Under the pieces are notes generated by a model. It made no database searches and was not told the origin of the DNA. It saw only the letters and a list, made by a program, of their open reading frames with translations. Of a DNA stretch of 64,000 nt, positions 36,672 to 61,170 are shown one piece after another. Source of the stretch: Macrostomum hystrix (Eukaryota > Animalia > Platyhelminthes); NCBI GenBank assembly GCA_950097015.1, contig CATNEN010000039.1, positions 10,478,001 to 10,542,000 on the forward strand. Direction: 5' to 3'. The first letter of the stretch is position 1; each line of letters opens with the position of its first letter. Both the position numbers and the translations under genes were made by a program.

Positions 36672-37204
36672 AGTAGTAGGGGTTAGCAGAACACGGCCGC
36701 AGGAAATTCCGTGGAAATTCCATGGCATGCATTGTAGTTTGGAATTGGTGAGCAGTCAAGGTAAAAGGTATGTATTTATATGTCTGTATATACTATCTAG
36801 CTCATATAATATATAAAATGTGTATATCCGGAAAACATTGATATTTTGTGAGTATAGTTCTGAATCTTGAGTCTGATGAGATAGAGCTGTAGTATGACTG
36901 TATGCAACTCTGCCGCACTTGTACTGAGGAGATAAGCGACAATGCAAATTGATAGTAGGGGTTGGGTCTATGCTGCTGGGATGGCTGAGCCAATCAGGCC
37001 CTGGTAAGAGAGTTGTGCCCCACCTGCAGTGGAGCGCAGGCCGAGCCAGGTAAGAGATTTTATGATTTTATGGTGATATGGTTGTGGCTGTGGCAAGCGG
37101 GAAGGCAGATAATGGTGGAATGTAACCAATCGCGCTGCGGAGAGTGCGCCTGCATGCACACAGTGACTATGAGTTGCTGGGGGTGTGGGGGCGAAGCCCC
37201 CACA
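36672..37204 (+). repeat. left terminal inverted repeat (533 bp)
   Basis: Starts AGTAGTAGGGG; reverse complement of 61964-62459 with about six substitutions and two small indels by eye. Confidence 0.95.
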
Positions 37205-37682: not shown

Positions 37683-37760
37683 CTGGGCAATTTTCTTTGC
37701 TCTGAGGCTATCTCTGTCTTTAATAAATACGCTCGTAAATAAAAAACGAGAAGCGAAAAA

Positions 37761-38582
37761 ATGTCTTCAGTTTGGCATTACGAAACTTGTTTGGATTGTA
37801 TGAAATGTCAGCAAGAAGGACTCCGATCCGATCGCCATGAAAAATGTGAAAAAGTGAAATGGGCAGTATGCTGGTAGTGCTCGGAGGTCTCTGTGTTCAA
37901 CGAACAAGCTGCTGCAGAAAATACCAAGGCTCATCGAAATCATCAGCTGCTCCCCGGTAATGAAGAAGCTGAGCGCTCGTTTCGGCGAATTGTCATGGGA
38001 GCAGCAAAGCGCAGCAAGAAGGAGAAAGATGCAGCAATACAAAGAATGAGGGCGCTCAGTCAAGTCATCAATGGAGTCATCAGATCCCGAGCCAGCAGCA
38101 CCAGCTCTAGTGAGGACTTTGTGACTCCAATTAGTGGTCGTCGTCACGACAAAGTCATCACCAATGCTGCTGCTGATGATGATAATGGTGAGGGGCGAGA
38201 GACTCAAGCTGCTGTGCAATCAATAGCGCCAGCTGTACTTCATGCTCCAGTCATCAGGGGCAAGCAGATGCTTCAACCCCCCAGCCCGATGATTGATGAA
38301 GAAGATGGTAGTGAATCCATGGATATTGAACCTGATGTCTTCGCTCTGATTGGTGATGTGACATCGTCTGCTTCGACTGGTGATCAAGCTGTTGCCAGTG
38401 GAGCTGTGTCTGCTATTACTGGTACTATTAGTTCTGCTGCTGCCTTGGCTGCTCCAAACGCTAGCAATGATCATGGCGACCTGTTGGCGGCGGCTATTGG
38501 GATCCCAGCTTTGACTGCCATCGATGCTGATGAGCTGCTGGCGGGCTTTGAAGGACAACAACAACAGCAACAGCCCGACTAG
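37761..38582 (+). pseudogene. left-end hypothetical protein, Cys-rich N-terminus + acidic low-complexity C-terminus; one in-frame TAG (37875-37877)
   Basis: MSSVWHYETCLDCMKCQQEGLRSDRHEKCEKVKWAVCW*CSEVSVFNEQ is in frame with ORF 37893-38582. Confidence 0.6.
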
Positions 38583-38711
38583 TGAAGCTGCTACTGCTAA
38601 CAATTTGACAGTGAATATTGTGCTTCCATATGTAACTGGTGCTGGCTATAATGTTCTGATTGAAGGTAACAAAGTTACGCTCACTCCTATTTAACTCTAT
38701 TCCTGCATTTA

Positions 38712-38762
38712 CACACACACACACCACACACACACACACACACACTCACTCACACACACACA
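38712..38762. repeat. (CA)n microsatellite
   Basis: Direct observation. Confidence 0.9.
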
Positions 38763-39216
38763 AACATTTTCAAACTCCTATAGGAAGACCACGATGTCTT
38801 TAAATGCTTCTAATGCTATTCATAGAACGGTGAGCTTACATTTTCTTATTAAAAAAAACAAAAAAGCTTCACTTTAATTTAGTCTTTCACGCTACTTTTA
38901 CAGGGAAAAAGCCCGAGTTGGAGCACAGTAAATTCCTGGAATTTAAGAGACAAAAATAAAACAAGCCAAAGTCATTTCACTTGTGATTATTGATTGATTT
39001 TTATACCTCGTTTTGAGAAAAATGTTTTGAGTAAGTTTTTTCTGCAGAAATGGGCAAAATGTGGAAAGTGGTGTTCTTTTTTGCTGAATAATTTGCCTGC
39101 GAAAGAATTTTGTTTTCGACGAGTCGCATTTAATTCAATTGGTATTTAAGGAAGTGAAAAACTTCAGAGCTGGGAATCAAAATAGAAAGAAAGCACTGCA
39201 GAGGTGATTTAAGAAA

Positions 39217-40968
39217 ATGAATTTCCTGCAGCTTGTTTTTCGGTTGCTTCTTTTGCTTCCGTTGTTACACGACGATGTGGCTTCTGGCACCCGGATCTGC
39301 AGATCCTTACATATAACCAGCAAGGGCTATGAGACCCACAGAAATGTTAGTCGCTTGCAGGCGGAGTTGACGGCTTTAGTAGCTGGCTGCCAGTATGTAT
39401 TCGGCAACTTGGAGTTGGGCAATATAGGTATGAACCAATCAACGTACCAACCGCTGGACGATGAAATTCGAAACATGCAAACAGACTTTCTTGACTCCAT
39501 TGTTGAGATCAGAGGAGCACTGACGATCAATTACGTCAGCCTTAAGCGCGTCACCTTCCGCAACTTGCGCACAATCCGAGGTTACGCTTTTAATGAATCT
39601 ACTACTGACTTCCCATTATATTCATTTGTATTATTCTTTTCGCGGAACATGAGGAAGCTGGAATTGCCCAAGCTGACTGCAATCACAAAGAAAAATGTAT
39701 ATCTATTGGGGTCAATTCAGTCTAGCTTGTACTGCTACCTGTCCTACAGCATCAACTGGAGAAGCCTGTTTCAAGAACCAGGCCAGCGTTTTTCTGATAA
39801 CATATTTTCTGTTATTACTGAAGAAGGCCAAGTTCTTCTGAGACGCTGGAGCTCACATGCGATAAGGCATACCTGCAATCGTCTGCTTTCCTGTCACGCC
39901 AATTGTACTCAAACTCCAATTTATAACAAAACTTGCTGGTCCGACGGTGTTGATGGCTGCCAAAGTAATCATCTGTGTCGTAAGCGCAAGTGTAAATCTA
40001 CGAACCTATGCTTCCGTAACCCTAGCACTGGCCAAGAAGACTGCTGCCACGACGACTGCCTTGGCGGTTGCTCAAACCGGCCCAACGAGTGCTTCGCCTG
40101 TCGCAGAGGAGTATTGTTCAATGGTGTCTGTAGAGAATCCTGTCCGTCGAATACTAGTACCGCTAGTGGCAATGGCACTGGCGTGACTGTTTGGCGACAG
40201 ATCGGCAACATCTGCGTAGAGGAGTGCTCACTGCCCTTTGTTGTTAGCTCTGACGGCAGGCGCTGCTTAATCGAGTGTCCGTCAGCAGAAGTCCCTATCA
40301 AAGGAGTTTGCTCAAAGTGTATTGACAAAATTAGCTCTAAGCCCTGCAAATCGTGCAATGTCTCCAATATAATTACTGACGATTTAGTATACTCATTGAG
40401 GACTGAGCAGTGTTCGATTTGGAGGGCCGATTTTTCTGATCTAGTCGTGCATGCTGATTGGTTAAGTAGCTTAGATAACCTGAAAGTATTGGAGAATTTA
40501 GAGTACTTTTACGGCAATTTAATAATTCAGAGATCTCAACACTTGACAGAAAATATTCGATTCCTACGTAATATCAAACATGTCACTTCTTCCTTTGAGA
40601 TTGAATTTCTCAAGACGAGATACCTCGGACTAGCTAGCTTGGAATATACTCCTAACCTTGAGCTTAAGGATATTAGTGATCTTTGCAGAGCCTGGTATCC
40701 TAGCAATCGAATCCGAGAAATCCAGGAAGTCACTAAAGAATTTCAAATTACAATAGAAAACCTGAGCTTCGATGACAGCAGCGAGATTTGCCGGAACGCT
40801 ACCTGCGATGCTCAGTGCCAGGACGAATGCTGGGGACCCGGTCCAGACATGTGCGTGGCGTGTCGGAACTTCAAAGTGAACGGCCGCTGCTATGCCACCT
40901 GTGCGGAGTCGGGCAGGATTGAAGTAAATGGGAATTGTGAACTGCCTGTGCCACAGCTAATCGGCTAA
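39217..40968 (+). CDS. intronless secreted EGFR/ErbB-like ectodomain (L1, furin-like Cys-rich, L2, partial domain IV), no TM or kinase
   Basis: Signal peptide; GCQYVFGNLEL, FLDSIVEIRG, FRNLRTIRG; CHANC..CW...CQ, DCCHDDCLGGC..CFACR; LGLASLE; CDAQCQDECWGPGPDMCVACRN. Confidence 0.9.
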   Translation: MNFLQLVFRLLLLLPLLHDDVASGTRICRSLHITSKGYETHRNVSRLQAELTALVAGCQYVFGNLELGNIGMNQSTYQPLDDEIRNMQTDFLDSIVEIRGALTINYVSLKRVTFRNLRTIRGYAFNESTTDFPLYSFVLFFSRNMRKLELPKLTAITKKNVYLLGSIQSSLYCYLSYSINWRSLFQEPGQRFSDNIFSVITEEGQVLLRRWSSHAIRHTCNRLLSCHANCTQTPIYNKTCWSDGVDGCQSNHLCRKRKCKSTNLCFRNPSTGQEDCCHDDCLGGCSNRPNECFACRRGVLFNGVCRESCPSNTSTASGNGTGVTVWRQIGNICVEECSLPFVVSSDGRRCLIECPSAEVPIKGVCSKCIDKISSKPCKSCNVSNIITDDLVYSLRTEQCSIWRADFSDLVVHADWLSSLDNLKVLENLEYFYGNLIIQRSQHLTENIRFLRNIKHVTSSFEIEFLKTRYLGLASLEYTPNLELKDISDLCRAWYPSNRIREIQEVTKEFQITIENLSFDDSSEICRNATCDAQCQDECWGPGPDMCVACRNFKVNGRCYATCAESGRIEVNGNCELPVPQLIG

Positions 40969-43900
40969 TGCGATGAAGGCTGCAACGGTCCAGGGCGTGA
41001 TCAATGTGTGAACTGAGAAGTTTCGTTACGAACAAATCAGTGCTTCATTGTAATGAGACTAAATTTGAGCTACTAATAGTAAACCAATATCCCTATGAAA
41101 ATTCTAAGATGAAATTTTGGAACAAGCTTTTGTCTTTAATTAGTCGATTAGCACATGCAGTGGCACACCATCAAGGCAAGCCGTTGTGGCCATATTTGGT
41201 CACCTGAGTTTGACGTCGCCATTTGTTGAAGCCAGTCAGGAAAAGACCTTCAGCACTTGAGTGTTTTTAGTTTTCGATACCTAAATAAAAATAGACTCGT
41301 ACTTCAAAATCAAATACTACTACTTTCAGTAGTATTTGTCGTGCATGCACGAGATGCACGCATGCACGTCCTTCATAAGCTTGTGCAGTGCTGTAGCTGA
41401 GTTAACCATTTGCCTATCAAGTATTTAATCAACAGGGTGCTCAGTGACTCGCACTTTTACTCAGCAGCAGAGCTGCACAATGTCTACTCGATGTACTCAA
41501 ATTAAAGTAGGCGTTGAGTTGAAAAGTCAGGGTTTTGTGAAGAGTCTTACACGGGTATAACTCCCTTGCTGCTCTTATTATATCCAGTTTAGTGTTGCTA
41601 TCAGCATGCGTTTACTGGTGTTATTTTACGGAGCGTCACTTCTAGGCACTACAGACTCAAGCATGCTACTTTCTTTAGATTGTTCGCTCAAGCTAGTTTA
41701 CAATATTAGATCTCGCTTCTCTGCGACTACTGGTCTGAGTACAGAGACAATTCAACTCAGGAACAAAATCTCAACTCGCGATAGCTCGAGCAAAGCTGTG
41801 AGCCATTTCTCTCGACTTAACTAAGGTATTTAACGGTTGAAAGGAGAGAAATGTGTCAAGCCAAACACGCGCGCACATACAATAGCTAAGGGCTACTGCG
41901 TGCATCCAATGATTGGATAGAGGTGCTGCACATATAAAATCCGATTTCGTCGTTAATGGACGTTAAATGGGCGCATTCTGAGCCACGAATCTATCGTCTA
42001 TGGTTGGAAAATGCGAAGTCTTGAACCGGTGTGCCATATAATGGTCCTGAAAACGGGGCCCATTAAACCGTATAATGGGCGCCAAATAATGGGCCGCAAA
42101 TCATTTATTGACGAAAAAACGTTTCAAACATGTTTAAACAAGTAGAATAAGCGACAACTAAGTAGTTAATAGTCAGTGGCAGTAACGGTCAATACCCAGC
42201 GTGAGGTAAACATCGTTAGTCGAATTTGATCTCGATCCTGCCACCCTCGATGACAAGAGACTTGACCCCGTGGCCAGCAGTGGACTTACCGGAGTTTCGG
42301 CCAGACTCCGCTACAGCAGGTTGCCCGCTTGATGGACCACTGACGTTCGTCGGACGACTGGAGTCCTGCAAAGCGTCAGAGGTAATCCTCGTAACTTTGG
42401 CCGATGGGCCTATTCTCATTCGAAATATTATGATCTCAAAATAAAAATTAATAATAATGATTGCTTCTCGATATTCGAGACACTTTTCTTAAGCTCTGAA
42501 AGTAAAACAACGCTAGCAGCTACGCCTGCTCAATCAGTCCTCTTTTAGAATTTAATCGTAGATCGTATAACGCTTGAAGAAATGCTCGAAAAGAAGTTAA
42601 AAATTAAAACGAATGACGCATTTAGCTCGTAGCTATGCTCAACATTTTTTTTCTAGTTCTGATTCGGATAACGCTTGCAGTTATGCTGGATAATTTTTGT
42701 TAGCTTGGAATACAAAAAAATGCTAACAGCACAGTCTTCACTTCTTTTTTAATCCTATTGAATATTGCTTGCAAGAATGCTTAACAAACGCTGAAAGTTA
42801 AAAGGAACAATCGCATTGCTCAAAGTATTTTCTAATATTTCTGAATCAATGAACCATGGCAGATATGCTCGAAAATGCTTTCCTCAGTTTTGTAGCGAAT
42901 AAAACTTGCTGCACTCAAAATTTTTGGGGGGGGGGCGCCCACCCCGAGCCCGCTCCTTATCTGCCTGTCTGGCTTGGAGATCGGGGCCACCTTCCGCCAC
43001 TCCCCCCTTCCGCCGCTACCCACCTTCCCTCGCTCTCACCACTTCCGCCGCTCCACTCCTTAGCGTAGGGATCGAGTTTGCCTACGCTAGTTTGCCGGCA
43101 TTTCTTTGTGTCCTGAACCCATTGTGCCACGCCACCTAGCCTTCTAGTCTCAGTAGTGCACCGCCATACGATGACGCCACGCCCTAGCCACCGGCAAATC
43201 AGTCTCTATCATACTTTCTTCATAATTGTTGCCCGCCGCAGTACAAGAAGTGATTCAACCCTACGTGAAGACCCTGTTCCATTGTTGCCATTGTTGCTAT
43301 ATGTCGCTAATACTGAGCGAGCCTGCATGTACACCTATATCCTCTACGTCGCCAATACTCGTCATCATCTACTACAACGTCATTGCCCGAGTGCTACTGC
43401 TAGACAAATCTTCGCCGTGTTTGTCGTTATTTATTCCACCTGGGTCCTCACCGAGAGCGTCACATTATTTCTTCGATAATTCGCTTTTACCATTTCGATA
43501 AATAATGTTACCCCCTCCATTATTTTTGCCAGCCACTTGATAAATTATTCTACCTTATTGATTATTTATACTCCACCTTGATAACTTTTGCTTTCCTCAT
43601 GATAAATTTTGTTTACCTCTCGATAATTCATTTTCTCCCTCGATAATTCATGCTTCTCTCTTAATCTATCTACTGATTAGCTACTATCATATCCTTTCTA
43701 TGGATAATTACTGCTTCCTTCTTGATAGTAAATGTTTCCTCCTGGATAAATTATGCTTCCACATCGATTATGAATGCTATCTTCTGGAAATCTCATGCTT
43801 TCCCCGAGAAATATCATGCTTATCTTGCTAAACAACTCGTAAAAACGATACAATTGAAAAAGCTAAACGCTAATATTGCTGTGGTTTAAATGTTGTCTTA

Positions 43901-45239
43901 TATTTCTAAATCTAATTACGCTTGCAGCAACGTGCGAAAAATCTGTCCTTAGTTTTATACTGAATAGCGCCTTTTTACGGAAAGACTATATTTTTTTCAC
44001 TATATTAATACTCGTACCCAAAAGAGCTGAATAAAAATGTAAATAGAAAACAGTTACTGATAATTATGCATAACAATAATTAGCTACCCCTAGATAGATC
44101 ATACTACCCCTCAATAATTCCTGCTAGTGTTGTAGTGCTGCTTTTTAATAGCACTTCCCTAGTAATTTAACTTCCTCTATTAGTAATACATAATGCAAGT
44201 GGTTGGCTTAACTTCCTTATTTATTGTTTTCAGTCACTTAAAGTGACCTGTACAATCATTATACCGCACCCCTGTTGGGTTGATTGATTCAAACTACTGA
44301 TAGTTTGGGTAGCGTGGCTTTCAACACGATAGGTCTGGCCTTCTGCCAGTAATGTTCTAGATACTAAATCTAGGTAATTCTGGAGACACTGCTCTCAGGT
44401 GTTTCAGACAATTTAATCAGATATTTCGGGCTCTCTGGCCAGTCTGTACTCGGGCTTCTCCCGGATCGGTCTTTAACGGTTTCCACTCACTTAGAAATAA
44501 GTAAGGCTTTTGAGCATGCTCACAAAGAGACTGAACTGTTTAAGCTCCAATTTAATGGCAGACCAAACGGTTAGCTTCCTGTATGAAAACCCCTCTGTAT
44601 TTATACCAAAAATCCTATCGAATATTCCCAGTATATTTCAGTGGAGTAAAACAAAGTTTATGTATAGATATTTGTAGCATATAAAAATATTTCGCGCGCT
44701 AGTTTAATTTGGCCAATGAGAGCCCTTTACACTATCCCTAAATAAATTATTCTATCCTTTTGAAAAAAGTGCTATACCCTGAAAGTATTATGTTATCCTA
44801 GAAATCTCATGCAATGTACATTAAGTTAGCACATTAAGTTAGCCATATATTAACGCACGTAGGGTGCTACAAGTAGTGACGCAATCCTATTCAATTGAGA
44901 GCATCCGCCCTGTTCTGTGCTACTAACGCACGCACGGGCGAGAAAAAGCACAGATGCAATCTTCTAATAAAGCTGACAGTGTCCGGCCCTATTCTACCGA
45001 AAAAACAGGGTCTATTGTATTCTGGATCTATTCTAACAGAAAATGACGGCTTTTTCGAGCATTAAATGCCTTTAAAATTAGCAAATAATTCGCAAAACGT
45101 GTAACATCTCGTTAAAAGGCAAATATTTTAGAGAAAGAATCGCGAAAATCGGACATCGTTTTTGCTAGAACAACGACAAGACCACATTTTACATTGAGTG
45201 AATGGACACACACACTTTTAGCATAATAGAAGATAGAGA

Positions 45240-45900
45240 GTACAACATCCCTCCCAATAGCTCGTATTGGTTAAAGACGGAGGAATAGAAAATGATTAAA
45301 ATAAGCATTTTGTTTCTACGCATGCGAAGCTCACAAAAGGTAACGTAGTTTGGCACGGGACACAAACTTAAATGCTGTAGGTAAGTCAGATTGTCACAGT
45401 CAAGTCCTTGTTAGCGGTTCGCTTTACTTTGACACCGGATGCTGCCATCGACGGGCGTTCCGAACATCAGATCGGCGGCGGAGATTCCCGTGACGGTGTC
45501 TGGCGTGTTGCTGTACACGGCGAGCCACTCTCGCAGCGCAGCTCGCCAATCAGTTTCTTGGGCTTCAGAAATGCAGAGCAGCTTGCTGAGGGACCGATTT
45601 AGTTGCTCTGTAATGCCATTTAATTTGCAGTGGTATCGTCTGATGCGTAGATGGCTAATCCTGAGACTTTTGACAAAGCTGTTCAACACCTTTGATGCAA
45701 ACAGTGGGCTGTTGTCGGATACAACCTGTCCTGCGGTTCCGAACGTCCCGAAGATCTGCTGCAGTTTTTTGATAGTGGCTTCTGCTGTCATCGATTTCCT
45801 GGCACAACGAATGGGTAGCGTTAGAAATGTTCGACAACTACCATGAAGTGCCGGCCGTTAATTGGCACGAGGAAGTCAAACACGACGGTCTCTGGCGCTG
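45240..45900 (-). mobile_element. Gypsy-like integrase remnant with PPT/LTR start
   Basis: TAEATIKKLQQIFGTFG...VVSDNSPLFAS...NGITEQLN; GGGAGGGA-TGTTGTA at ~45255-45241. Confidence 0.75.
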
Positions 45901-46169
45901 AGTCTCTGGCCTTGACAGAAAAGCATGAGAAATGATACGCAGGAAAGGATGGAAGGAGAGCGTCGCGATGTTACAGATTTCGCGACACTCAGGAAATCCT
46001 ACTCAGAAGTGCGGATATCCCTTTCGAATTTCCTTGTTCTCCATTGCCTACCCTAATAAGTCGTTGCGTTGCTTTAAGGCGAGGGACTCAGCCTTTTCAC
46101 AATATTCAGCATCAGTCCTTTGGTGCAGTGCTAGGGCTAGCGCTGCATGGTCTCTATTAAAACTAATTA

Positions 46170-46439
46170 GTGGCTTTTAAAGGCCGATTGTATGCACAAT
46201 CGCGCTGCTATGTCGAGTGTTTAGAATGTCGTCCGTACTGCATTTCAGACAACAAGACCTTCACAAAGACTGACAGGCCAACCAAGACAGTCACCGCCAC
46301 TGTTGCAACCAACTGGACTGTGTCCGTTGGTTGCAACAACGACCTCTTCTGTCTGGAGGAGTGCGCCAGCAGCCCCAGCTGCCAGGCTGTGATTTTCAAC
46401 GAACGGCAGCTGCTGTGCCACCTGCTCAGGTTTTTTTGA
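46170..46439 (+). pseudogene. PAN/apple-domain fragment
   Basis: FCLEECASSPSCQAVIFNERQLLCHL Cys pattern; no clear start or signal peptide. Confidence 0.5.
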
Positions 46440-47879
46440 GTGCCACTCAAGCTCAAAAATGCTCCGAATAACTTACACCGCGGACCACAAAAATATCTGG
46501 AGAACTAAGGCAGGGACCACTGAGGAAATCGCCAGGGGAAAAAGCATCCGAAATCTCACATTTTCTCGCAACCATTGCCGATCCAAACATTTCCTTCACC
46601 TGCTACAGATAGGTTACTATCAACGAAATGTCAAGATACGAGCGTAGGCCATATTTGAGTTACGAGTTACATAATTGACTGCTCACATATTAAAGTTAGC
46701 ACATTAAAACGTATTTAAAACTAGTCTATTTAACTGCATATTATTTATACGCGGTTTTGAGGTCCTTAATAAAACAAAAATCGATTCTGTTATACTGCCA
46801 AACATGGAAAAAAGAAGGTTAAGCGTCTAAAAATTTCCTGTTTGTTCTAGATCAGAGATACTTGGCAGAATGCGATTTGTACAAAGTTAAAATTTGTTTC
46901 TTTACACGAAAACGTTACAAAACCGGAGTGATGCAGAACCGAGATTGAAACGCGAAATTATTCTTTTTTTCCTTTAACAATTCTTCTAGCTTGCTTATAT
47001 GGTTTTTCGATTTCAATTTTTTCAGTTTTACTTCACTAGCTTCTGCGCCATAAAATTTAATATTCTACCAAAATGACTCATTTAGACGAAAAAGTCTTGT
47101 TGGGAAATGAACTGAATATTGCTTGTACTCTCTTGCTAGCAATTAGACTTTTCTTTTCTGCGTGGCCACTAATTGACAACCAGGCATCTATTGGATAATT
47201 ATCTGCATTGGATAATATTGGAAAATTACCTATTGTAGCTGCCGAAGACCGCGTACAACGTTCCAGCCCCCAGAACCTGCCGTCTATTGCCAGCACGATC
47301 GCCATAGTCCCGAGGAGAGGTCCGATCGGCGTGTGCCGATCGCCATTCTCCTGAAGAAAGGCAAGACATCCGATGAGATTGGCTTCTTCTGGTCGATTGC
47401 CCTGAACTCAAGGCTGGCTAAGCTAGCCGAGCGTTAGGTCCAAGCGTGGCTCTACGGGTGGGCCGAGTTCCAGCACACCTTTTACTTTTTACTTAATTGC
47501 AGGGGGCCTGGGGCACTTGACGCACAAGCGCAGGAACGACTAGGCGGGAGTCGCCCATCGCGCCATCTGGACCCCTGGACACAGAAACCTCACACAGCCG
47601 CAAGCCAAGCGGGGAAGGGGGCGGCAGCCGGAGTGCCTCTATCTCACCACAGGCCCGCACATGCACAGAGCAGACCAAACCAGGGGAGGACTTAGATGCC
47701 TGAATGGTAGGGACGAAAGGACCAAGCCACGCGCGCAGACGGCTGGTGAAACCTCGACGCTCAGAGCACGCATGGCTGGTGCACACCCGCCCCACCCCCA
47801 TACAACGCCTCACTGTCGGCCCAAGGCACAAACACAAACACAAACAAGCAGGCATGCAGAAGGCAGGGGTTAGGCTATT

Positions 47880-48720
47880 CTAAATTAGCTTTGGTTGCAC
47901 AGAATAAGGTGCATCTCCACAAGTCACTACTTCGCAAATCTCCAGCTAAGCCCCGAAATTAGCGTGACTTGGAGGGAGGAACGAACCAGCGACCATTGGA
48001 AAGTGAGGCAGCGACATTCGCCGCTGACCCACTCACCCCCTCCTGCTGCACCCCACTCAGGCCGGTCGATGCGCAGCAGCAGATTGCCCGGCTTACTCAG
48101 CTCATCAGTGACGGCCACCAATAGCCACCCGTCAGAGGAACGGTGGCCGTCTTGTTTGAGTTCCGTAGACTGTATAGAATCAGGGCCTGTTGCACATCCT
48201 GCACGCCGCCTGGATCCGGCCGCGGGCGTTCGCTGGCAAACAAGCCTCTTGGCTGACCGACGAGCTGCTGTCAAGGCGCATGGCGCGCTGAGCAGCTGCC
48301 GGATCTTTCGCGAGGTCCTGCCGCAGTCGCGTTTTTGCCCCACTGCTCTTTGAGCTGAACATCAACGACCTACCCGGCTGCTGTCAGAGTACGTGTATTC
48401 TAAATGAACGTTGCTTGACGCAGACGATCTCGCTGTCGCGGTGCAAGGCTTGACTGCGGAGGAGGCCGAGGCGAAAGCGCAGCGGGCAATTGACGCGGTC
48501 ACCGCCTGAGAGAAGACTGGTTTATCTTTGGCTAAACGATATAACTTTCGCCTTGGACCGCCAGCAGCGCTTCCTCGGCATCATCCTGGATCACTGAAAT
48601 CGGGGTTTCCAGGCCTCTATAGGCGTCAATATTGCACCTGCCTGCGGTTTTTTTATACGAGATTGAGGAGAAGGCCGCTTACCTGTTTAATAACTAGCCT
48701 AGCTTACTAGCCCTGTCTCT
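47880..48720 (+). mobile_element. heavily deleted non-LTR retrotransposon remnant (APE SDH motif + RT)
   Basis: TSDHW; LADRRAAVK; FAPLLFELNINDL; ADDLAV in shifting frames. Confidence 0.65.
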
Positions 48721-48902
48721 TCACCTCCACGAAGAAGTGGGCTAACGTTACAGCCTGAGCAGATCTCGGATATCTCCTGCTTTTTCCTGTGGCGAACAGA
48801 GCGGTTGGGCGCTGGTCAGACATCCGTTCTGAGCAGAGAAAGCTTGGGCGAAGCGCTCAGCCGCGCAGCGGGCTGCCTCCCCTCCTAGCCGGCTGCATGG
48901 CC

Positions 48903-48904
<2 letters not shown>

Positions 48905-48958
<54 letters not shown>
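48905..48958. repeat. (CA)n microsatellite
   Basis: Direct observation. Confidence 0.95.
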
Positions 48959-48959
<1 letters not shown>

Positions 48960-49375
48960 CTTCGTGTTTCACTCTTGGATTCGATTTGATCGAAATATTT
49001 TCAAAAAGGAAAATAATTTTTATTAAGCGTCATACAAATTATTAATTTTCGAAACATAAATGTCCATATCCTAGGCTTTTTAAAAAGTGTACCTGCTTTC
49101 ATAGTTCAAGCATGAGTTCTACGCTGCTTCATTGTCAATGTCATCTTTTATTTGTCAGCTTTTGGTAAAAACCTAACTTCCGTTATAATTAATCAGCAGT
49201 GCTGGAAATTCAAAAAACATTTTGGCTAACTGAGCATCTTAAGTGTTTTCGGAACAAAAAGAGTAAAGGATTGTGTTTTTTTCTTTGTGTGCATTATATA
49301 TATATATATATATATGCATTAACTGGCTGATTGTGCAAATGCTTCATTGCAACATAATCTTATATTCATATTTTT

Positions 49376-49625
49376 AGAGTGGGTTGTAGCCTAGTGGTTA
49401 GATTCGAATCGCAACTCCGCTGTTGCAATTTTTGTGTCCTTTAGCAAGACTCTTTACTCTGAAGTGCTTCAGTTCACCCAGCTGTTAAATGGGTTCCAGA
49501 ATTTACTGGGGTAATTGAATTACTCGTAGGTGGTGTGTTGTCCCCTCAGTCCACGGACTGAACAGCCGTACGCAGCCTTCGCTGCGGCTGTGCTGTCGGC
49601 TGCACATCTGACCCCGAGTGGTAAA
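49376..49625 (+). mobile_element. tRNA-derived CORE-like SINE (internally deleted head)
   Basis: ggttgtagcctagtggttag head shared with 4198-4296; tgtgtcctttagcaagac...ttcagttcacccagctgttaaatggg resembles the CORE domain. Confidence 0.7.
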
Positions 49626-50268
49626 ATTTAATATTTTTTATTATAGTTTCTATTATTACTATTTTTTAGAAAGAAAAATTACAGTTTAGTAAAATGGATT
49701 TTGAATCTCACCTGCACTTTTCTATATTTGTGTGCGACTCGAGCAATTAAATTTAACTAGATTAAGTTGGCCTGTGATTGTTCTATTGTAAGTTTAGCAA
49801 GTACAACTGGATTGATTGGCATTAATTGACTCGCTTTTGTTGTGAAAATATTATTTTGTATAATTTCAGTCTACTAAAAGTGTCCAATCATCTGGTGCGG
49901 ACATCTCAGACTTTGATGAAAAAATTGTCGGACATAGAAGAAGACTTGTCAGAGTCCACAGACACAGACTTGTCGGATTCAACTGGCACTAACTGGTCTG
50001 ATTTGATAGATCAAAGCAGGCTTTCAGATTCTGAGTCTAAACCCGGTCAGAGAAAGACTGGAGAAAAAAAACTGAGATACCGACAGCAGCAACAGCAGCA
50101 GCGGCAGTGGAAGAAGCAAGGACACATCCTATAGCGAAGAGCATAATGCTGAAAGCAGCGCAAGCAATGAAGGTAAAATAAATATATACCTCACATGTAT
50201 TATTTCCTTGCTGTATATTTTATTACGTAATATGAAATAAATGTATACTTGTACCTTCGTTTATACAG

Positions 50269-53200
50269 GCAGTCTTCAGATCATCAATAACGGAGCTGTA
50301 CAAATCATCACAGCACACAATGGAATTATTGAAGCTATTCGGATTCACCCACAGCAGCAGCAGCAAGACGCTACAGGCTCTGATAGGGAACAATCTGAAG
50401 TTGATGCCTTCGCAGGTGTGGCAGCGATGAAAGACTATATTTGCCAGATGCTCTCTGAGAGACTGCTTGTAGGTGTGAACCAACTGGTGCGTGCTCAGCT
50501 GAAGCTTAATGTGCACATGCAGCGGTTGAAAGCAGGTGAGATGGTGGTTGAGGAGGATAAGTGGATTAGTGTTCCTATGAAACAGCTAGACTCAGTTGAT
50601 GAAATCGGCTCATGGTGGACTGACCAATTGAATGGCTGTGAGAGAGTCATTGAGCTGTTAAACACTAATGGCAGCGGCTGGGTGCTCGGCCGTGTCAATT
50701 ACGTTGACTTGTCTATAGCACATGGGGACAGAATTCGCTATTATGCTGGTCATGCCGATCAATTCGAGCTACCCCATGATCTATTAAGTGAAGCAGGCTG
50801 TAATTAATCCACCTAGCACTGGTGATGATTCCTTTGTTTATGCCTGCATTTCTGTCCTTCACCATGATGATAAAGAAATCAGAAAATCGCCTCATCGATT
50901 ATTATCCTACCAGAAATGGCTTCATGAAATCAATTTGGATGGTGTACAAAAGCCAGTTCAGATTAGTTATCTTGATCGAATCGAGTTTAATAATCCCTCG
51001 TTGTGCTTCTCTGTGTTGACTTGGAAGAATGGGACAGTTGAAGTGTTGAGACAGCCGAATGCAGAACTCACCGAAGGTAGAAAAGTAATTCCACTTCTGC
51101 TTCTGACAAAAAGTGATTTTAACACCGTCACCAACACTAGCACCAAAGGGCATTGGTGTGGGATTGTTAGCCTCAACCGTCTTCTCAATAGTCGTTACGG
51201 ACTGCATCAGCGAAAATGGTGCGAAAGATGTCTAACATCTTTTAAATCTGAAGAGCGCCTCCGCACACATCGTGATGAATGTTATCAGTCCAACAGCTAT
51301 ACGCAGAAAGAAGTGATGCCCACAAAAGAAAAATGTATGCTATCATTTACTAGTCATGAGAAGACTATTTCTCCTACATTTGTTGTATACGCTGACTTTG
51401 AGTCATTTAATGAGCCAGTGAACACTGAAGCTTCATCAGGACCGAGAAATGTTTACCATCACACACCTGCGGCTGCAGGTTGTCTAGTTGTTCAACGTGC
51501 AGGTGTAAAAGGACCACTTCTTGGTGATAGTGGATCGATTTATCAGGCTTTTACTGCTGACACTACTGAGAACTGTATTGAGAAGTTCCTCTTCTATCTA
51601 GAAAGACTGTCTCATGAAATTTATGAGTGGAACAAGAAACACAGTTACCAACCTAAAATTATCAATGAAGCTGCTTAAGATGAATTCGGAGAAGCTGAGA
51701 TTTGTCTCTACTGTGGTGTGAAGTTTGATGGTGAAACTTCTTTGAAGGTGTGGTATCATGACCATTCCTCAGGCGAGTTCCGCGGTGCTGCATGCTCAAA
51801 GTGCAACCTTTCTGCTCAGCTGAAGCGACGATACTTGCCTAGGTTCTGCTTCACAATCTTAAAAACTACGACATGCATCTAATTCTTTCTGCGGCATTGG
51901 GAAGAATGAAGCATTGGCGACTTAATGTGGTGCTAATGACCATAGAGAAGTATTTATCTCTTGCTGCTGAAGTAAAAGTTGATGCAGTAACAATTCAAGG
52001 AAAGAATGTGCCACTTTATGTGACGATTCAATTTTTGGATTCTTTCCTGTTTCTAAGCAGCAGCTTGGATTGCCTTGTCAGGGATTTGCCAGCAACCGAG
52101 CAAACCCACACAGGTCGCTTGAAAGAATTCTATCCGAATCTCAGCAACTTTACTCTCGAGGGCAAAGGCGTTTTTCCATACGAGTTCGTTAAAAGTGCTA
52201 CAGACTTAGAGTTGAGAGAGCTGCCACCTCGGGAAGCATTCTTCAACACCCTCTCAAAGACTGAGTGCTCCCCGACACAGTATGACCGAGCGAGAAGAGC
52301 TTGGGAAGAATTCGGAGCCGAAACTTTGAATGACTACATGCTCGCCAATCTTCAAATGGACGTCAGACAGCTTGCAGACGTATTTGAATCTTTTAGACGA
52401 CTAAGCATTCAGGACGATGGCCTTGATCCCGTCCATTTCATCTCTACTCCTGGATTGTCGTTTGCATCGGCCATGAAGAGCACCACAAGTAAGCTTGAAC
52501 TTTTGACTGACAACACTATGTACAGGATGTTTGATAGTGTTGGCGTGCGCGGCGGAATGTGCTTTGTTAATGTGCACCAAGTAGCAACAATCAAGTCAGA
52601 TGTTGAATCAGCTTTACTTATTCCGCTTGATGTTAATAATTTATATGGAGTCGCACTTTCTATGCCGCTACCCTGTAAGGATTTCCGATGGGTCGAGCCG
52701 GAAGTTCTCAGAACCTGGACTGAGGCTACCATTCTAAGTCAGCAGGACGATTCACCTGAAGCATTTCTGATTGAGGTTGATTTACATTACCCTCCAGAAC
52801 TTCATGAGCAAACTAGCGAACTACCTCTGGCACCTGAAAAGTGTTCAATCGAATTTGAAGAGTTCCCAGAATTCATGCAGCAGCTCTGGTACAGTCTCAA
52901 TCCAGACGGTCGAGTGTACAAGGGCAACAGAAAGCTGCTACTCGATTGCTATGACAAGCAGGGCTATATTGTGCTTAGCAGAATGTTGAAGTTCTATCTG
53001 GAACAGGGAATGAAAGTAGTTGAATTCAAACGAGCTATCCAGTTTTCACAAGAAAGCATCTTGGAACCCTACATTCGAAAAAATACTGAGCGAAGGATGG
53101 CATCGACGTCAGACTTTGAGAAATTCTACTACAAGCTCAAGATCAATTCAGTCTTTGGAAAGACCATGGAAAATGGCAGGAAAAGGAGAACAATCCGAAT

Positions 53201-53984
53201 TTAAAGTAACGAAGTAAAAGCGAAGATGCTTGCGTCAAAGCCAAATCTGAAGGAGGTAATCGTGATCAATGAAGATTTGACCATCTTTGAGTTGAGTAAA
53301 ACAACAGTGAAGCTGGATAGACCCATCTACATTAGTCAATGTGTTCTTGACCTATCTAAGCTTTACATGTACTCACTTACTGTACACCAAATTAAAACCA
53401 TGGTTTGAAAAAGAAAATGTGCGTCTGGAGCTCTGTGGCGGTGATACTGATTCATTTTTCCTATGTGTTAGGAACATCGATCTTCTGCGAGACTTCTTGC
53501 CTGCTCTGATTCAACGAGGCATTCTAGATACCTCCAACTATGTTGAAAACCACCCGTTGAAGTCTAACAATTTTAAAGCAAAGCCTGGTTGCATTAAGGA
53601 CGAATCCTGCGGGATTGAATTCGTGAGTGGATTCTTCTCCGACCAAAGCTCTACAGGTTCCAAAGCACTGTTACTAACGCGAGTAAAAAGGCTGCGAAAG
53701 GAGTTCAGAAAGCAGTGCTCAAGAAAGAAATTAGCCATGCGGATTACGTCGCTGCATTTGACTCACTCAAAACTCATGATGTTGTCACTCATCGTATCGG
53801 TAGTCATCATCACGAGATTTATACTATTCAGCAGCGCCAGCGAGCTTTGACAACGTGGGAAGATAAGCGAGCTTGGATTAGTTCCAACGAAAGTCTTCCG
53901 TTCGGCCACTATCGTCTTCGGCATGATGTTGCTGCTGATGCTGCTGCTGCTGCTGCTGCTGCTGATCCTGTCGCGAAAACGTGA
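50269..53984 (+). pseudogene. polB: protein-primed family B DNA polymerase with EndoVII/HNH-like insertion; at least 6 stops/frameshifts
   Basis: GSGW, AVINP, CERCL..F...H..C, VVYADFES (ExoI), HDH.SGEFRGAAC..CN, HNLKNYD, KGVFPYEF, DVNNLYG (A), KLKINSVFGKTMEN (B), GDTDS (C), KDE, EDKR. Confidence 0.95.
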
Positions 53985-54868: not shown

Positions 54869-55443
54869 TTATTCTGCATTCGAGATCAAATTTTGTAGGT
54901 GCACAAAGTCAGATTGTAGTTGAAATAAAGAACGAGCTCCACTTAGAACAAAGGAGCCATTGTGAAACAATAGACATTTGCAAAAGTTAAGTTTGAAAAC
55001 TAGTGCGGAAAATGATTCAGATTGATAAAATGCCTTTGGGATTCTCAAAGACAAGTCTGACAAATACAGAGCAGAACAAACAGATAGCTGTCCATGCGCA
55101 GTAATTGTTTTAATTCGAACACAAACGGGTTGATAAGGCAGCAGCTGAGCAGGCACTCTGCGATGCAGCATAGCCACGAAGCGATGGGCAGCCCTGACTG
55201 AGTCCGAGTAGCTCCGGGCGCCACAGATGCTCAGTTGGCCAGTGGGGTAGAGTAGCAGTGTCACTCTCGGATTCCGGATCCCCTCTTGATGAGCACTCGG
55301 TGCCAGACGGGTCGGTAGATGACATGAGCCATGCTGAGAGTGAGTTCCCGAAGTGGAAGCTGGGCGTCCCTGCCACCGGCCAGTCTCAGATCCACTCCTG
55401 CGACCAGATTGGTAACTCTCGGGGCTGTTGCTTGAGTAGTCAT
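54869..55443 (-). pseudogene. TATA-binding protein (TBP) homologue, ~190 aa, one frameshift in a G-run near 55280
   Basis: PRVTNLVAGVDL...LRELTLSMAHVIYRP...VLIKR / IRNPRVTLLLYPTGQLSICGARS...AAHRFVAML...YQSESFSALVFKL...CLLFHNGSFVLSGARS follows both TBP core repeats. Confidence 0.85.
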
Positions 55444-55544
55444 TTCTAATGCGTCGGCTGTTTGTGAAGTTGCCCGTGCTTCTAGTGCAGGAGGAGCAGT
55501 TTGAAATTGTCATGTGCCACGGGCACTGCTCGCTTCTTAAGCTG

Positions 55545-55972
55545 ATACAAAATGTTGGCTTCAGCCAGCTGTAATACAAAAGCGCGTTTCTCACGGCGCA
55601 GCCGGTATCTGATGTTTTGCTAGATGGCGATCCCAGATCCTCCAGGTTGTACACCTGCCTGCCCAACAGCTGGGTCAGAAATACACACTTATTCTCCCTA
55701 CATGTCCAGGTGGGCTTGCATGCAATTCTTCGGATGTCAGCAGCCAACTCCGTGTAAGGTCGGGTTCCATCGGTCCACTTTAGCCTATGCCGCTTCTGTG
55801 TGAGCTGTCTGTATCGAATTCGCATTCCAGGGGAAACCCTCTCCCAGGAACATGGGGACGCATACACATGGTGGGTGATGAGTTAGCTTCCTGACCTATC
55901 TTATACAACTGCCATCTCCTTCACAATGAAATCACTGTTACATGGAAAGCCTTGGATGTCGATGTAGTACAT
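55545..55972 (-). pseudogene. hypothetical DEDD/DnaQ-exonuclease-like protein, two in-frame stops
   Basis: MYYIDIQGF...FIVKEMAVV...HRLKWTDG..PY...K..FL...VYNLEDLG.P...CAVRNA pattern; fold call is inference. Confidence 0.5.
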
Positions 55973-55981
55973 TTTCAGTCG

Positions 55982-56699
55982 TTAATCGAATTCTTGGCCA
56001 TTAGAATCAGCCCGCTGCTTTCTTATATACTTTTTTTGCTCACCTAGCTTCAGCCAGGCTGTCTTGCACCCAAATCCCTTAACTGCATGTTGTTCTTTTC
56101 CAACTTCAACCTCTTCACTGGTAGCTGGCAGAGACATTTGCTGTCTGAGGGATTTTCCTATAGCTGAAACTGGGACATTAGAACTCTTTTGTCCCAGCAA
56201 GCAAACGAAATCATCCCACCCGGCTGGTTTATTTCGCATTTCAGAATCCCTCACCGCATGCTGAATCAAGTCGACGATGTTCGATGAGGAAATTAACTTG
56301 CCGGAAATTTCCGTCTCCCCACTGTCACCCACCCGAATCAGAGACGGATTGGCTGATAGGATGGCCCATAGACTGCGAGCGCTGGTTTTGAATTTCTGGG
56401 GCACGGACTGGGCAATCTTTTCTGCCCAGCTGCTCGGCAGCATCTCTGCTTTCTGTTTCTGTGCCGCTTCACTCTCTCCTGCTACACTCTCCTTTCCAAC
56501 TTGCTTGCGCTTGGACAACAAACTTTTCATAGCGTTCTGGTACATTGTCTGGCCAATCGTCGGCATACAATATATCATCACATTTTATTTGTGCCTGCTT
56601 TACCGCAATGTCTCCTGCAGACTCATTGAGCTTCACATTACTCATTAGCATGTCATACTCAGACTTGGGAATCAGAACCATCTCGGGGAACTTGTTCAT
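55982..56699 (-). pseudogene. conserved Maverick hypothetical protein (frameshifted)
   Basis: MVLIP N-terminus; GE..I.G..I..SNIVDLI...P.GW..F...L...NVP...IG motif typical of animal Mavericks. Confidence 0.65.
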
Positions 56700-57006
56700 T
56701 TTCCTTCTTTCTTCTATGCACAAGCTTCAGCAGAGTGGGGAGAATTTTAAGGAAATTATGATTTAGCAAGTCAGCTTCTTTTCTTTGAGCTGGGATTTTT
56801 CGAATAATCTGCTTGGACTTTGCCAGCTCAGCCTTTTCAATAAGAGAGAAAGTCAGGTTGTTTTCCAATAGGTTGTAACAGGCTTCAACAAGGAATTTTC
56901 GCACTTCTTTCGGACCGTGCTTGATTAGCAAGCGCTTGAAGCTGACAGTGTATTTCGCTGATGCAAGAATTGCAAAGATGCTTTCATGAAAACAAAGCGT
57001 GTCCAT
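56659..57006 (-). CDS. conserved small Maverick hypothetical protein
   Basis: E.CYNLL.NN..S..EK..L.K.K..IRKI pattern; sits directly after the ATPase. Confidence 0.55.
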   Translation of the reverse strand: MDTLCFHESIFAILASAKYTVSFKRLLIKHGPKEVRKFLVEACYNLLENNLTFSLIEKAELAKSKQIIRKIPAQRKEADLLNHNFLKILPTLLKLVHRRKKENEQVPRDGSDSQV

Positions 57007-57045
57007 TGTGGAGTATAGATATGGAAAACAGCGTATTTGCCATTC

Positions 57046-58047
57046 TTAGGTATAAACTAGGTGGGGGCGCTGGTTGGGCAGGATCCGGGCTCGCACTCGC
57101 AGCTCATCGGGAGTGGATGGGTGGAAATCCAGAAGCAGGTAAGCTCCCCTACCTTTAGCGGTCACATGCTAAAACACAGACAGCAGAAAGCCGGGCTTCT
57201 CTACAAAGCACTGCCTGCCCAGTGCTGCAATCTGCAGCTGGTCTCTGGGGTTTTTCATGATGACAAAGTACATCGCATTCAGACTAATCGTTCGCAACTC
57301 TTTTCCTTTAAAAAATACACTCTGGGTCAGCATTACCAGAAAGCAGGGTAAGTGATGAGCGATTCCGGTGAAAACATTTCGCATCGCAGCAGAGTTAGAA
57401 GTCTCTTCAATCAAATCATCAAAAACAATCAGGTCATTGGGTCTTAGAGCCGCCTCAATGTTGCTGGGGAATCCCTGCTGCATGTGCACTCCCAGGCTGC
57501 TCAGCTCAGAGTGCACTGTCTGCGAAACCCCATAGTACCACAGGACTCTCTCAGGCTTCGTATCAAACATTTTCGCACTTCGCTTCTACAGATTGGCTAA
57601 AGCCGACTATGGAAACCAGTGCGAATAGAACCTGCTATGATGCCCGCCTGCGGCAGGGAAGCTGCATGAATTGCATGCAAGCCCACCTGGACATGTAGGG
57701 AGAATAAGTGTGTACTTCTGTCCCAGCTGTTGGGCAGGCAGGTGTACAACCTGGAGGATCTGGGATCGCCATCTAGGGAAGTTGGAAAAGAACAACATGC
57801 AGTTAAGGGATTTGGGTGCAAGACAGCCTGGCTGAAGCTAGGTGAGCAAAAAAAGTATATAAGAAAGCAGCGGGCTGATTCTAATGGCCAAGAATTCGAT
57901 TAACGACTGAAAATGTACTACATCCCTGTACTGAATTAGCTGCTTCACGAAGGTTGTCTTGCCAGCATTGGTTGGCCCGCTGACAATCATGCAGCTTCCC
58001 TGCCGCAGGCGGGCATCATAGCAGGTTCTATTCGCACTGGTTTCCAT
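57046..58047 (-). pseudogene. A32/FtsK-like genome-packaging ATPase, interrupted by ~350-bp insertion (57571-57924) and a stop
   Basis: Walker A GPTNAGKT; Walker B LIVFDDL; HH...LTQ; RTISLN..Y; KNPRD..QI..L.RQ; YLLLDFHP. Confidence 0.92.
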
Positions 58048-58079
58048 AGTCGGCTTTAGCCAATCTGTAGAGCTGACTT

Positions 58080-58595
58080 TCATAACTTTCTTTTTCTTAG
58101 GCTGGCTTCGAACTGCCGAAGCATTCTGTCATTCAGGTGGCTCTTTTCCTTTGAATGCAGTTGTCGCAGAACCCACTTAAATGACCGTTCGAATTGAAAC
58201 TTCTGATAAGTAAAATAAAGACAGAAGAGGCCGCATTTGACGGAGTCACAGCTTTGAATTCGATCCACATTGCTGCTCAAACGAAGCGGGGAACCTAAGG
58301 CTACTTTCAGTAAACCATGAATAATCATTCAAGTTTTCGAGTCCCAGCCAAGGGAATTGAAAAGCTCCACAGAATTCCCGCAAGTGACGTCGCAAACCAC
58401 CCAGTGGCCTGACAAGGAGCTGTGATGCAACAAAATGAAAATTAATTTGCTCTTATATGTTTTCTCATTCAGGTAACTCCACAATTGTAATTCTAATTCA
58501 GCATTATTGGAACTATTCAAATTTAGAGACACTATAAAAACGTTTCTAGGGGGCAAAAAGCTTCTGGCAAGTTTAAACACCTGAAAAGTGTTCAT
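58080..58595 (-). pseudogene. adenain-like cysteine maturation protease, one in-frame stop (58329-58331)
   Basis: GHWV...ELFNSLG...IQ...SVKCGLFCLYF. Confidence 0.88.
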
Positions 58596-58597
58596 AA

Positions 58598-59882
58598 TTA
58601 TGATGAAAAATCTAGCAAAATTTCCCTATGCTTGGTGACTTCAATCAGAGAGTCATACAGGCACATGGCAATCAGAGTCACGGCCTCGTCAAGCGCCTGT
58701 CGGAACCGAATCTCCAGCCGCAGTTTTCCCTCTTTCTGTCCGTACCACAGGGCTGCTCCCTCGGGTGTGAGGTCGAACGCTAACACGGTGTTGTCGTTGG
58801 AGAAGACCTGATAGGGGATCCAAGGGACCGAGTTGGTGGGGCTGGCAGACTGGAAACTTTTCAGGTAGTGCAAGTACTCTCGCACAAATGAGTTGTTTTC
58901 GGGTGTGAATGCACCGTGGCACATGGTTTCCCCGCCTTTCTTTAAAGCTAGCTGGCTGAGGTTGAAGCTCTGGAACTCGAAGGGGCTGGTGTGATGATTC
59001 CCGTTGAAGGCTCAGTGGCTCACGAAAGCCAGCATGATGAACTTAGGGAGTTTTCAGTGGGTAAAGCCTTCAATGTTCCTCGACTGGATTCCCTGGGGCA
59101 GAATAAAGTTCTGCATTTCGGCTCGCTCCATAGGATAGAGCGCATTCTGGTTGGTCAGTCCCTGCTCATGGGCTAGGCTGATGTGAGAAGCCACCTTGAC
59201 TCGGCGGAGATGCAGGATGCAGTGGGAGATTTCCATGCGGTAGGCTGTGTTGTTTGTGACCGGGGTTCTGATGGCAAATGCAGCGTCGCTGCGCACCAAC
59301 TTAATGTGCAGGTGCAGGTTGTTCAGCAGGAACATGGGGCACTGGAAGATGTCGCTGAGCAACGGTCCGGCATACTCCACCCAGCGGGACTGCCTGTGGC
59401 TCTCCATGTGCGCCTCTGCAGCGGAGTCAGATTGCAGGAATCCAGCGGGGTAGAACTTCAGCTGCTGGGCGTCTGAGGAGCTCATGAGAGCTTTGAAATA
59501 GGCATGATAGGGATAGAGTTGGTCTCCCCCGGACACAACTCGCTGGTTAATGCTCACAATGACATCAGAGAAGAGCGTAGACAGGACGAAGTTTTCAGGG
59601 TGCACATCACTGTCTCGGCGCTCTGTCAGCTCTCCTTCAGCGTTCAGAACATTCTCCCTCAGCAAGCACCCATCCAGTCGGACTAGGCGGCAGCGAATGT
59701 ACAGTAAAGAATTCAATAGATCGGTGTATTCGTCAGCTGATGGGTGGCAATCGAATTCGATGGGTGCATTTGCAGCAATTGAGTTTCACGGGGTGAATAT
59801 CGACATAGGAGGATTTGTCAATGGCAGTCTGCAGCGCAGGAGCCTTGAACAAATCGAGCCTTGGGTTGAATCCATAAGCCAT
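58598..59882 (-). pseudogene. double-jelly-roll major capsid protein (hexon-like), frameshifted
   Basis: LDLF.AP.LQTAI...V.IHP...PIEF...Y.DL.NS.LY; LFSDV.V.IN; YPYHAY; C-terminal LAFDLTP...G.LRLEIRF..AL...VT.I....D..IEV...R. Confidence 0.92.
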
Positions 59883-59884
59883 GT

Positions 59885-60075
59885 CTACGACAAAGAGTCC
59901 AGCACGCGCTTCACCGTTTTCCTGCCGACTTTTCGCTTCCTCTTGCTTACCGTTTTGCCCTTTGCTTTGCTCTCTCCTTTCTTAGGTTTCTTTCTACCTG
60001 CATTGTTCCGTTTCCTTGATTTTTCCCCTTCTTGCCATTTTGGCGAGGTGTCTTCTGTATTCTCTTTTTCCTAGA
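59885..60075 (-). pseudogene. basic C-terminal remnant of putative core/DNA-condensing protein
   Basis: QEGEKSRKRNNAGRKKPKKGESKAKGKTVSKRKRKVGRKTVKRVLDSLS* between penton and hexon; N-terminus apparently lost. Confidence 0.45.
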
Positions 60076-60116
60076 AGCTTTAGCATATTAGTACTGCCGG
60101 ATCAGCTGCTGATAGT

Positions 60117-60904: not shown

Positions 60905-60946
60905 TCCTCAAAATCAAAATATTCAAATATCGAATAACTTAGATGT

Positions 60947-61170
60947 CTATACCTTTCTTAAGTCCTTCTCATCCACCCAGCCAGTCGAGTTGTAGTCGGC
61001 CCACTTTACGAGATAGCGAATCTTTCCCTTCCGCTTCTCAGTCTTTAGAATCTTTTCAATCACATACACCCGCAGGGAGTCCGGAACAGCTTAGAGTTCA
61101 TGCTCATAAAAGAGTCATTGAATGTCTTCCCCCCTCATGTCGCGAATCTTGTACATGTAGGGATAATGCT
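60947..61170 (-). pseudogene. Maverick integrase C-terminus with chromodomain; catalytic core absent
   Basis: YKIRDMRGEDIQ*LFYEHEL*...YVIEKILK...RYLVKWADY..GWV.EKDL. Confidence 0.85.

Follow-up and report, generated by a model that had tools for sequence, protein, structure and literature searches.

A soluble-type EGFR ectodomain gene, present in several copies, lies within a dead Maverick of Macrostomum hystrix

We analyzed a window of 64,000 nucleotides of Macrostomum hystrix DNA (contig CATNEN010000039.1, positions 10,478,001 to 10,542,000 of the forward strand). The window contains a Maverick element and, inside it, an open reading frame (ORF) for part of an epidermal growth factor receptor (EGFR). 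An initial annotation of this DNA had described an uninterrupted ORF of 583 amino acids with the L1 domain, the Cys-rich domain II, the L2 domain and the start of domain IV. We found that Pfam, a structural model and alignment all bear this out, and that the translation contains no internal stops (Table 1). The annotation's claim that the window holds neither a transmembrane (TM) helix nor a kinase also held. No TM or kinase match was found in the window by tblastn with three full-length Macrostomum lignano EGFRs, and the best 19-residue hydropathy past residue 30 of the ORF is 0.99, compared with 3.06 for the TM helix of a full-length relative. By alignment, tblastn and hydropathy the ORF is without a complete domain IV, a TM helix or a tyrosine kinase domain. 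The gene is a soluble-type EGFR ectodomain that retains both ligand-binding domains, and it exists in several copies.

An AlphaFold2 model of the ORF product, built on a 36-sequence alignment, has a mean predicted local distance difference test score (pLDDT) of 87.7. Both L domains are visible in the model and L2 is modeled with high confidence as a beta-helix. When the model was used to search with Foldseek the top match was the Drosophila EGFR ectodomain (E 5e-22, TM-score 0.62), and a search of the ESM Atlas with the ORF returned EGFR clusters only. The solved structures closest by sequence are LET-23 and Drosophila EGFR. The signal peptide that had been proposed stands as a prediction from the hydropathy of the N-terminal helix.

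We found that the receptor homology of the ORF stops at Cys574 and that the final ~8 residues are outside the receptor frame. Because of this the end of the ORF is itself set by a lesion, and the frame does not end cleanly. Further domain IV remnants lie 3′ of the ORF, with two stops and in more than one frame within ~100 bp. They can be aligned to a full-length relative through 41007, which agrees with the earlier proposal that the gene derives from a longer receptor. An AATAAA is present at 41284, within the AT-rich 3′ flank. Since homology breaks at Cys574, decayed domain IV remnants lie beyond it and TM and kinase are absent from the window, the sequence indicates that the ORF is a truncated descendant of a host EGFR paralogue.

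The proteins nearest to the ORF are the three full-length M. lignano EGFRs, at 47, 37 and 34% identity. In a library of 1.8 billion proteins 2 of 108 matches to the ORF reached 1e-30, both among these three receptors, and matches outside Macrostomum were far weaker than the closest relative, Mlig012838 (P0001, PAA79361.1; hereafter the parent). A tree with host EGFR paralogues had been suggested as a check on the origin of the ORF. In a quick tree of 26 ectodomain rows the ORF is sister to the parent, with a Shimodaira-Hasegawa-like approximate likelihood ratio test (SH-aLRT) support of 99, within a Macrostomum clade with support 100. This phylogeny fits a vertical origin of the ORF in Macrostomum. 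Every Cys of the ORF (38 of 38) aligns to a Cys of the parent, and no Cys before parent residue 580 has been lost. Searches for relatives elsewhere were negative: none of 7996 candidates was a near-length homologue and the exact ORF sequence was absent from the protein collection, none of 76 pattern matches in metagenome contigs and none of 20 in viral contigs was a relative, and a library of viral folds held no EGFR-like fold, its one match at E<=0.001 being partial with a TM-score of 0.21.

The initial annotation had pointed out that the ORF has no introns. An automatic M. lignano gene model, P0112, runs antisense across a second copy of the parent gene: over 284 residues (520-803) and a further 156 residues (811-966) it agrees with P0110, in antisense, codon for codon. 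As judged from this match, the parent gene has no interruption in residues 520-803 and 811-966, a stretch that starts in domain IV and takes in much of the kinase. Since the parent is itself largely uninterrupted, the lack of introns in the ORF says little about capture. The same match indicates that the parent is without an intron at the position of a proposed splice donor, GTAAAT at ~40924. Two side observations concern these models. The two parent copies are opposite in orientation within P0112, and a frame change in domain IV leaves model g8 of the parent (P0111, 549 aa) with the ectodomain only. The parent paralogue group may repeatedly yield truncated copies, or the model may reflect an assembly error.

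We found parts of the window in 12 public runs, none of them recorded as RNA. These were located via the EGFR gene, and their labels as RNA-like or genomic are guesses. Four runs (X1, X3, X4 and X9) were compared with the window over 38770-48890 and two over 35600-38705. With cover in 30 of 30 bins of either stretch, X1 is the one run that spans the whole region, and in this it resembles genomic DNA. Overlapping contigs of a single run differ from the window at 0 of 225 and 53 of 358 letters in X3, and at 14 of 398 and 35 of 299 letters in X1. Because the contigs of one run differ from the window to this extent, the copies of the ORF are paralogues and not alleles; their contigs are 85-100% identical to the window ORF.

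The main EGFR contig of X1 has a depth of 853.5, compared with 210.4 for the contig of the Maverick left-arm ORF (ORF1) and 237-265 for the TIR contigs; single junctions range from 78 to 105, with 77.8 at the left element end and 80.5 at the joint of the right junction. Summed depth was 1194-2082 in 7 of 7 bins of the ORF unit (39108-41473), 79-264 in 14 of 14 bins of the Maverick arm (37264-38705) at the same likeness cut-off, and 201-277 over 45868-47219. The ectodomain genes thus appear to outnumber the adjoining Maverick arm several-fold, a statement to be read with caution, as copy numbers cannot be read off summed depth, rare forms are lost from contigs and X1 is possibly the window's own sample. 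Upstream of the ORF the cover of 1411 at 39084 declines to 705 at 39051, 180 at 38894 and 95 at 38836. This drop ~200 bp upstream of the ATG suggests that most copies are without the sequence that links the window copy to the Maverick. Downstream the cover is 1921 at 41004 and remains close to 1280 over 41088-41127, a stretch in which a receptor would encode its membrane-proximal part. The sustained 3′ cover suggests that most copies have a non-coding 3′ flank in common and are probably truncated too.

The other three runs bear on the transcript. Their cover is concentrated on the ORF bins, and none of the 19 bins of X4 over 36744-38705 shows any depth, for which reason we call X3, X4 and X9 RNA-like, absence of cover by itself not being evidence. 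Contigs of X3 (40680-41002), X4 (40702-40980) and X9 (40682-41002) cross both the ~40924 donor and the stop with 0 gaps and 3 differing letters. As the runs carry no RNA record, these contigs may or may not stem from an unspliced, TM-less transcript. The donor had been put forward as a possible splice to a TM or kinase exon, and no splice was seen in the contigs that cross it. That the ORF is the first exon of a full-length receptor joined to distant TM and kinase exons, or a product of misassembly, is scarcely credible to us: beside these contigs and the uninterrupted parent, both outer junctions of the Maverick are present in X1. What could be said for it is that the (AC)n run between ORF1 and the EGFR segment lies outside both compared stretches.

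The ORF lies within the Maverick as originally described, between TIRs (36701-37192 and 61971-62459) that are 99% identical. The left end begins with AGTAGT, reported as the commonest end motif of vertebrate Mavericks (PMC8097293). No 6-bp target-site duplication (TSD) was found at the element ends. The Maverick proper amounts to ~15 kb, and the remaining 11 kb (38.7-49.5 kb) contain the EGFR unit along with fragments of unrelated transposons; at the borders of this inserted segment neither TIRs nor long direct repeats were found. The debris includes a probable long interspersed element remnant with a (CA)n tail to 48958. Just upstream of polB, 49378-49540 resembles a tRNA-derived short interspersed element. 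The best named match of polB from M. lignano is only 47% identical, which points to a macrostomid other than M. lignano as the probable source of the window. At least six lesions had been claimed for polB; tblastn located five, of which two are in-frame stops (51676 and 53202) and three are frame changes (near 51845, 53390 and 53620). A sixth near 50795 is suggested by ORF overlap only. At the 5′ end of polB an AT-rich GT...AG segment (50173-50269, plus strand) between two open frames resembles a spliceosomal intron.

In the core, the ATPase P-loop and Peptidase_C5 matches fall under the curated cut-offs and both genes are broken. Three near-perfect inverted duplications (147, 109 and 85 nt) in 55620-58071 split the ATPase gene in a manner resembling template switching. 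The TBP-like ORF (54869-55905, minus strand; Pfam TBP, E 5e-13) has part of its sequence copied inverted at 57668-57776 and a TATAAG 36 nt upstream of a candidate ATG. The core may also hold probable major and minor capsid genes, which gave no Pfam match, and a putative integrase C-terminal remnant; for a probable capsid piece, viral contigs yielded no relative (0 of 1). Around the element the same ~230-bp repeat occurs in both flanks (36403-36634 and 62459-62664, 89-94% identical in blocks). Together with the missing TSD and the shortened right end this could mean a rearrangement of the flanks or a chimera of two insertions. The left flank at 35912-36535 is a repeat with high depth and several variant contigs in X4. 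Outside the element, exons of a host leucine-rich-repeat gene, with long minisatellite introns between them, lie at 10868-16325 on the minus strand. The Maverick is dead.

Table 1. Coordinates of the EGFR ORF, the Maverick and their surroundings (positions counted from the first letter of the window).
Feature	Position	Strand	Remarks
Left Maverick end	36672..37192	+	AGTAGT at 36672; TIR matching right arm from 36701
Maverick left-arm ORF (ORF1)	37761..38582	+	No Pfam match; followed by (AC)n run 38711-38766
Unit common to paralogous copies (approximate)	39000..41470	+	Short 5′ flank, ORF, AT-rich 3′ flank; bounds inferred from X1 contig cover
Truncated EGFR ectodomain ORF	39217..40968	+	Domains I-III with the initial three modules of IV; 38 Cys and 10 N-glycosylation sequons
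Predicted signal peptide	39217..39288	+	Hydrophobic helix, residues 3-17, by hydropathy and model
L1 domain	39385..39768	+	Pfam Recep_L, residues 57-184
Cys-rich domain II	39895..40347	+	Pfam Furin-like, residues 227-377
L2 domain	40354..40791	+	By fold and alignment; no Pfam match
Start of domain IV	40801..40938	+	Pfam GF_recep_IV, 529-565; ends at last Cys (574) of complete module
Decayed domain IV module remnant	40942..41050	+	Out-of-frame tail; stops 40966, 41014; motifs in more than one frame
Host-like debris inside element	41500..49500	.	Pfam, repeat and contig evidence
rve integrase fragment in debris	45411-45788	-	
PAN fragment in debris	46167-46436		
High-copy repeat in debris	47220-48233		
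Protein-primed polB	49826..53981	+	PF03175; broken in 5-6 places
Maverick core, broken	54869..61800	-	TBP-like ORF, packaging ATPase split by internal inversions, adenovirus-type protease, PC4
Right TIR	61971..62459	-	6 mismatches and a 3-nt indel relative to left arm; lacks outer ~29 bp; junction seen in X1

The first of two readings offered by the initial annotation was a captured ligand trap, in effect a viral decoy. If the ectodomain were true cargo, captured and spread by a Maverick lineage as an element-borne decoy of host EGF signaling, the depth of the ORF in X1 should not so exceed that of the adjoining arm and TIR (79-610), and near-identical copies of the ORF (96.5%) should have carried alignable arms along, instead of common sequence that fades short of the arm. 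Depth and cover in X1 thus argue against co-amplification with this arm. No TATAAG box was found on the plus strand upstream of the EGFR ORF. With the element dead, no TSD and the parent intronless as well, we regard this explanation as improbable. In a fuller version, a host EGFR was taken up by a lineage of flatworm Mavericks and cut down to a secreted ligand trap, which the lineage now spreads as a decoy that alters host stem-cell EGF signaling. This version is slightly less probable again; if true, it would place a growth-factor-receptor decoy in a Polinton-type virus for the first time. A viral part in the story is possible but not favored, and on present evidence the ORF is not a viral decoy. 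The other suggestion made at the outset, a host gene that arrived later and is under selection, fits better as regards the later arrival; as regards selection the evidence is mixed.

The lesions are unevenly placed: we found 0 in the 1.72 kb of the ORF before the truncation point and several within ~100 bp after it. The complete Cys scaffold, kept at 47% identity and despite fast divergence, points to selection on a soluble product. One diverged copy (40408-40709), present in three runs, has a gap of 3 letters relative to the window, although another (39383-39743) has 5 gap letters. Apart from the latter, these observations speak against a transcribed pseudogene family, in which segmental duplication would have multiplied a truncated EGFR duplicate that has no selected function. 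Such a family, which we consider unlikely though a serious contender, would account for an ORF end set by a lesion and for the ectodomain-only, frameshifted parent model P0111. It would also agree with the variants of the ORF listed from the contig comparison, of which 3 of 13 are synonymous (neutral share 0.22, P=0.56); these 13, which have the best support among more than 1000 rows, are filtered and biased to sites where the window copy differs from most others, and may tell more of the window copy than of the whole family.

Our preferred explanation, to which we give a probability somewhat above one half (about 0.55), is that the ORF belongs to a host family of several copies whose products would be secreted EGFR ectodomains without a kinase, probably acting as ligand traps, and that the window copy is a passenger in the dead Maverick. 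The share of synonymous variants just given weighs against it, and so do several further points. The contrast between an intact ORF and a broken polB, on which the initial annotation relied, exists but is weak alone, as at 5-6 lesions per 3.7 kb the probability of 0 lesions in 1.72 kb is 0.06-0.10, a value that the pseudogene family would also accommodate. The same holds for the long branch of the ORF in the quick tree (0.98 vs 0.41), which fits relaxed constraint as well as adaptation. The conservation of Cys may predate the truncation. The GC content at third codon positions of the ORF is 0.51, under that of four host exons (0.62-0.70) and inside the Maverick range (0.34-0.68), although this is explained equally well by drift in a fast-evolving gene and by a long stay in the element. 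Transcription is deduced, since no run is on record as RNA, and one of the three differing letters in the 3′ contigs could touch the stop. Finally, the ORF lies between left TIR and core genes, which matches the cargo regions of nematode Mavericks, described as carrying the host-derived genes wasp and krma (10.1101/2022.07.12.499685). Unlike the ORF, wasp and krma recur in many Mavericks and cross species; recurrence of the ORF with this arm was tested and not seen in the contigs.

We propose that the host family arose as follows. A lineage-specific EGFR paralogue, already largely intronless, would have been duplicated, as the tree and the parent structure suggest, the order of these events being our own surmise. 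A lesion past the third domain IV module then closed the frame, and the code downstream of it decayed and was lost, leaving the remnants now visible. Domains I-III diverged fast while keeping the whole disulphide scaffold, which suggests selection on the soluble product. Contig cover and depth suggest that amplification of the 2.5-kb unit did not depend on the arm of this Maverick. One copy, with ~8 kb of host-like debris, appears in the assembly between the left arm and polB and may have come there by capture or by later insertion.

The family is likely transcribed and its products secreted, and it would damp EGF signaling by soaking up ligand. By analogy, the protein would bind EGF/neuregulin-like ligands between L1 and L2 and compete with the kinase-bearing paralogues, and a decoy role is plausible. 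A gain in affinity through loss of the domain IV tether, an idea from work on human EGFR, found no confirmation in the literature search and may not hold for invertebrate receptors; we place no weight on it. We also considered a dominant-negative partner, that is, a soluble ectodomain that pairs with membrane EGFRs and blocks their dimerization. Decoys of this class have been described for receptor kinases, and domain II of the ORF is complete with all of its Cys. The loop of the dimerization arm (C309-C333), however, is 5 residues shorter than in the parent, carries two sequons and has a tip with pLDDT<50. This short, doubly glycosylatable arm leans weakly toward a ligand sink; the point is a weak one because the arm of P0002 is similarly short. 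We judge the dominant-negative partner very improbable.

Several known systems resemble the proposed family. DAF-2B is reportedly a secreted insulin-receptor decoy made by loss of the kinase. Drosophila SDR and insect DR2 are described as insulin-receptor decoys, of which SDR is secreted and ligand-binding (PMC7253209). Like them, the ORF is a separate gene, one that arose when a receptor kinase gene was duplicated and its kinase part lost; unlike the ORF, which is EGFR-derived, multi-copy and a predicted decoy only, SDR and DR2 derive from the insulin receptor and are old and single-copy. Mammalian soluble EGFR isoforms are reported as alternative transcripts of the receptor gene (PMC1431701), and C. 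elegans HPA-1 and HPA-2 as secreted proteins made of L domains only (PMC3227454). These are secreted L-domain proteins that antagonize, or are predicted to antagonize, EGF signaling, as is predicted of the ORF product too, whereas the ORF comes from a separate gene family and keeps domains I-IVa. Closest is the parent itself, which shares with the ORF an identical Cys pattern, a short domain IV and a largely uninterrupted gene, and has several gene models per locus name; unlike the ORF, it continues through the remainder of domain IV into a TM helix and a tyrosine kinase, and its dimerization arm is longer.

A census of flatworm EGFRs gives 8 receptors for M. lignano and, as it describes its procedure, kept only sequences containing a kinase (PMC4914847). 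Because only such sequences were counted, secreted paralogues without a kinase would have been excluded by design. A literature search found no EGFR ectodomain in a Maverick and no secreted EGFR family in Macrostomum, although supplements of Macrostomum genome papers could bear on this point; PMC12796670 offered nothing of relevance. The predicted secreted EGFR ectodomain is a real and apparently undescribed variant, while decoys that arise by kinase loss are already known elsewhere. EGFR signaling controls regeneration and homeostasis in flatworms. If our explanation is true, this fast-evolving family would correspond, on the EGFR side, to the insulin-receptor decoys of insects and act as a brake on EGF signaling in a model genus for regeneration. 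The position of the ORF within a Maverick illustrates how host signaling genes can end up in elements of this kind.

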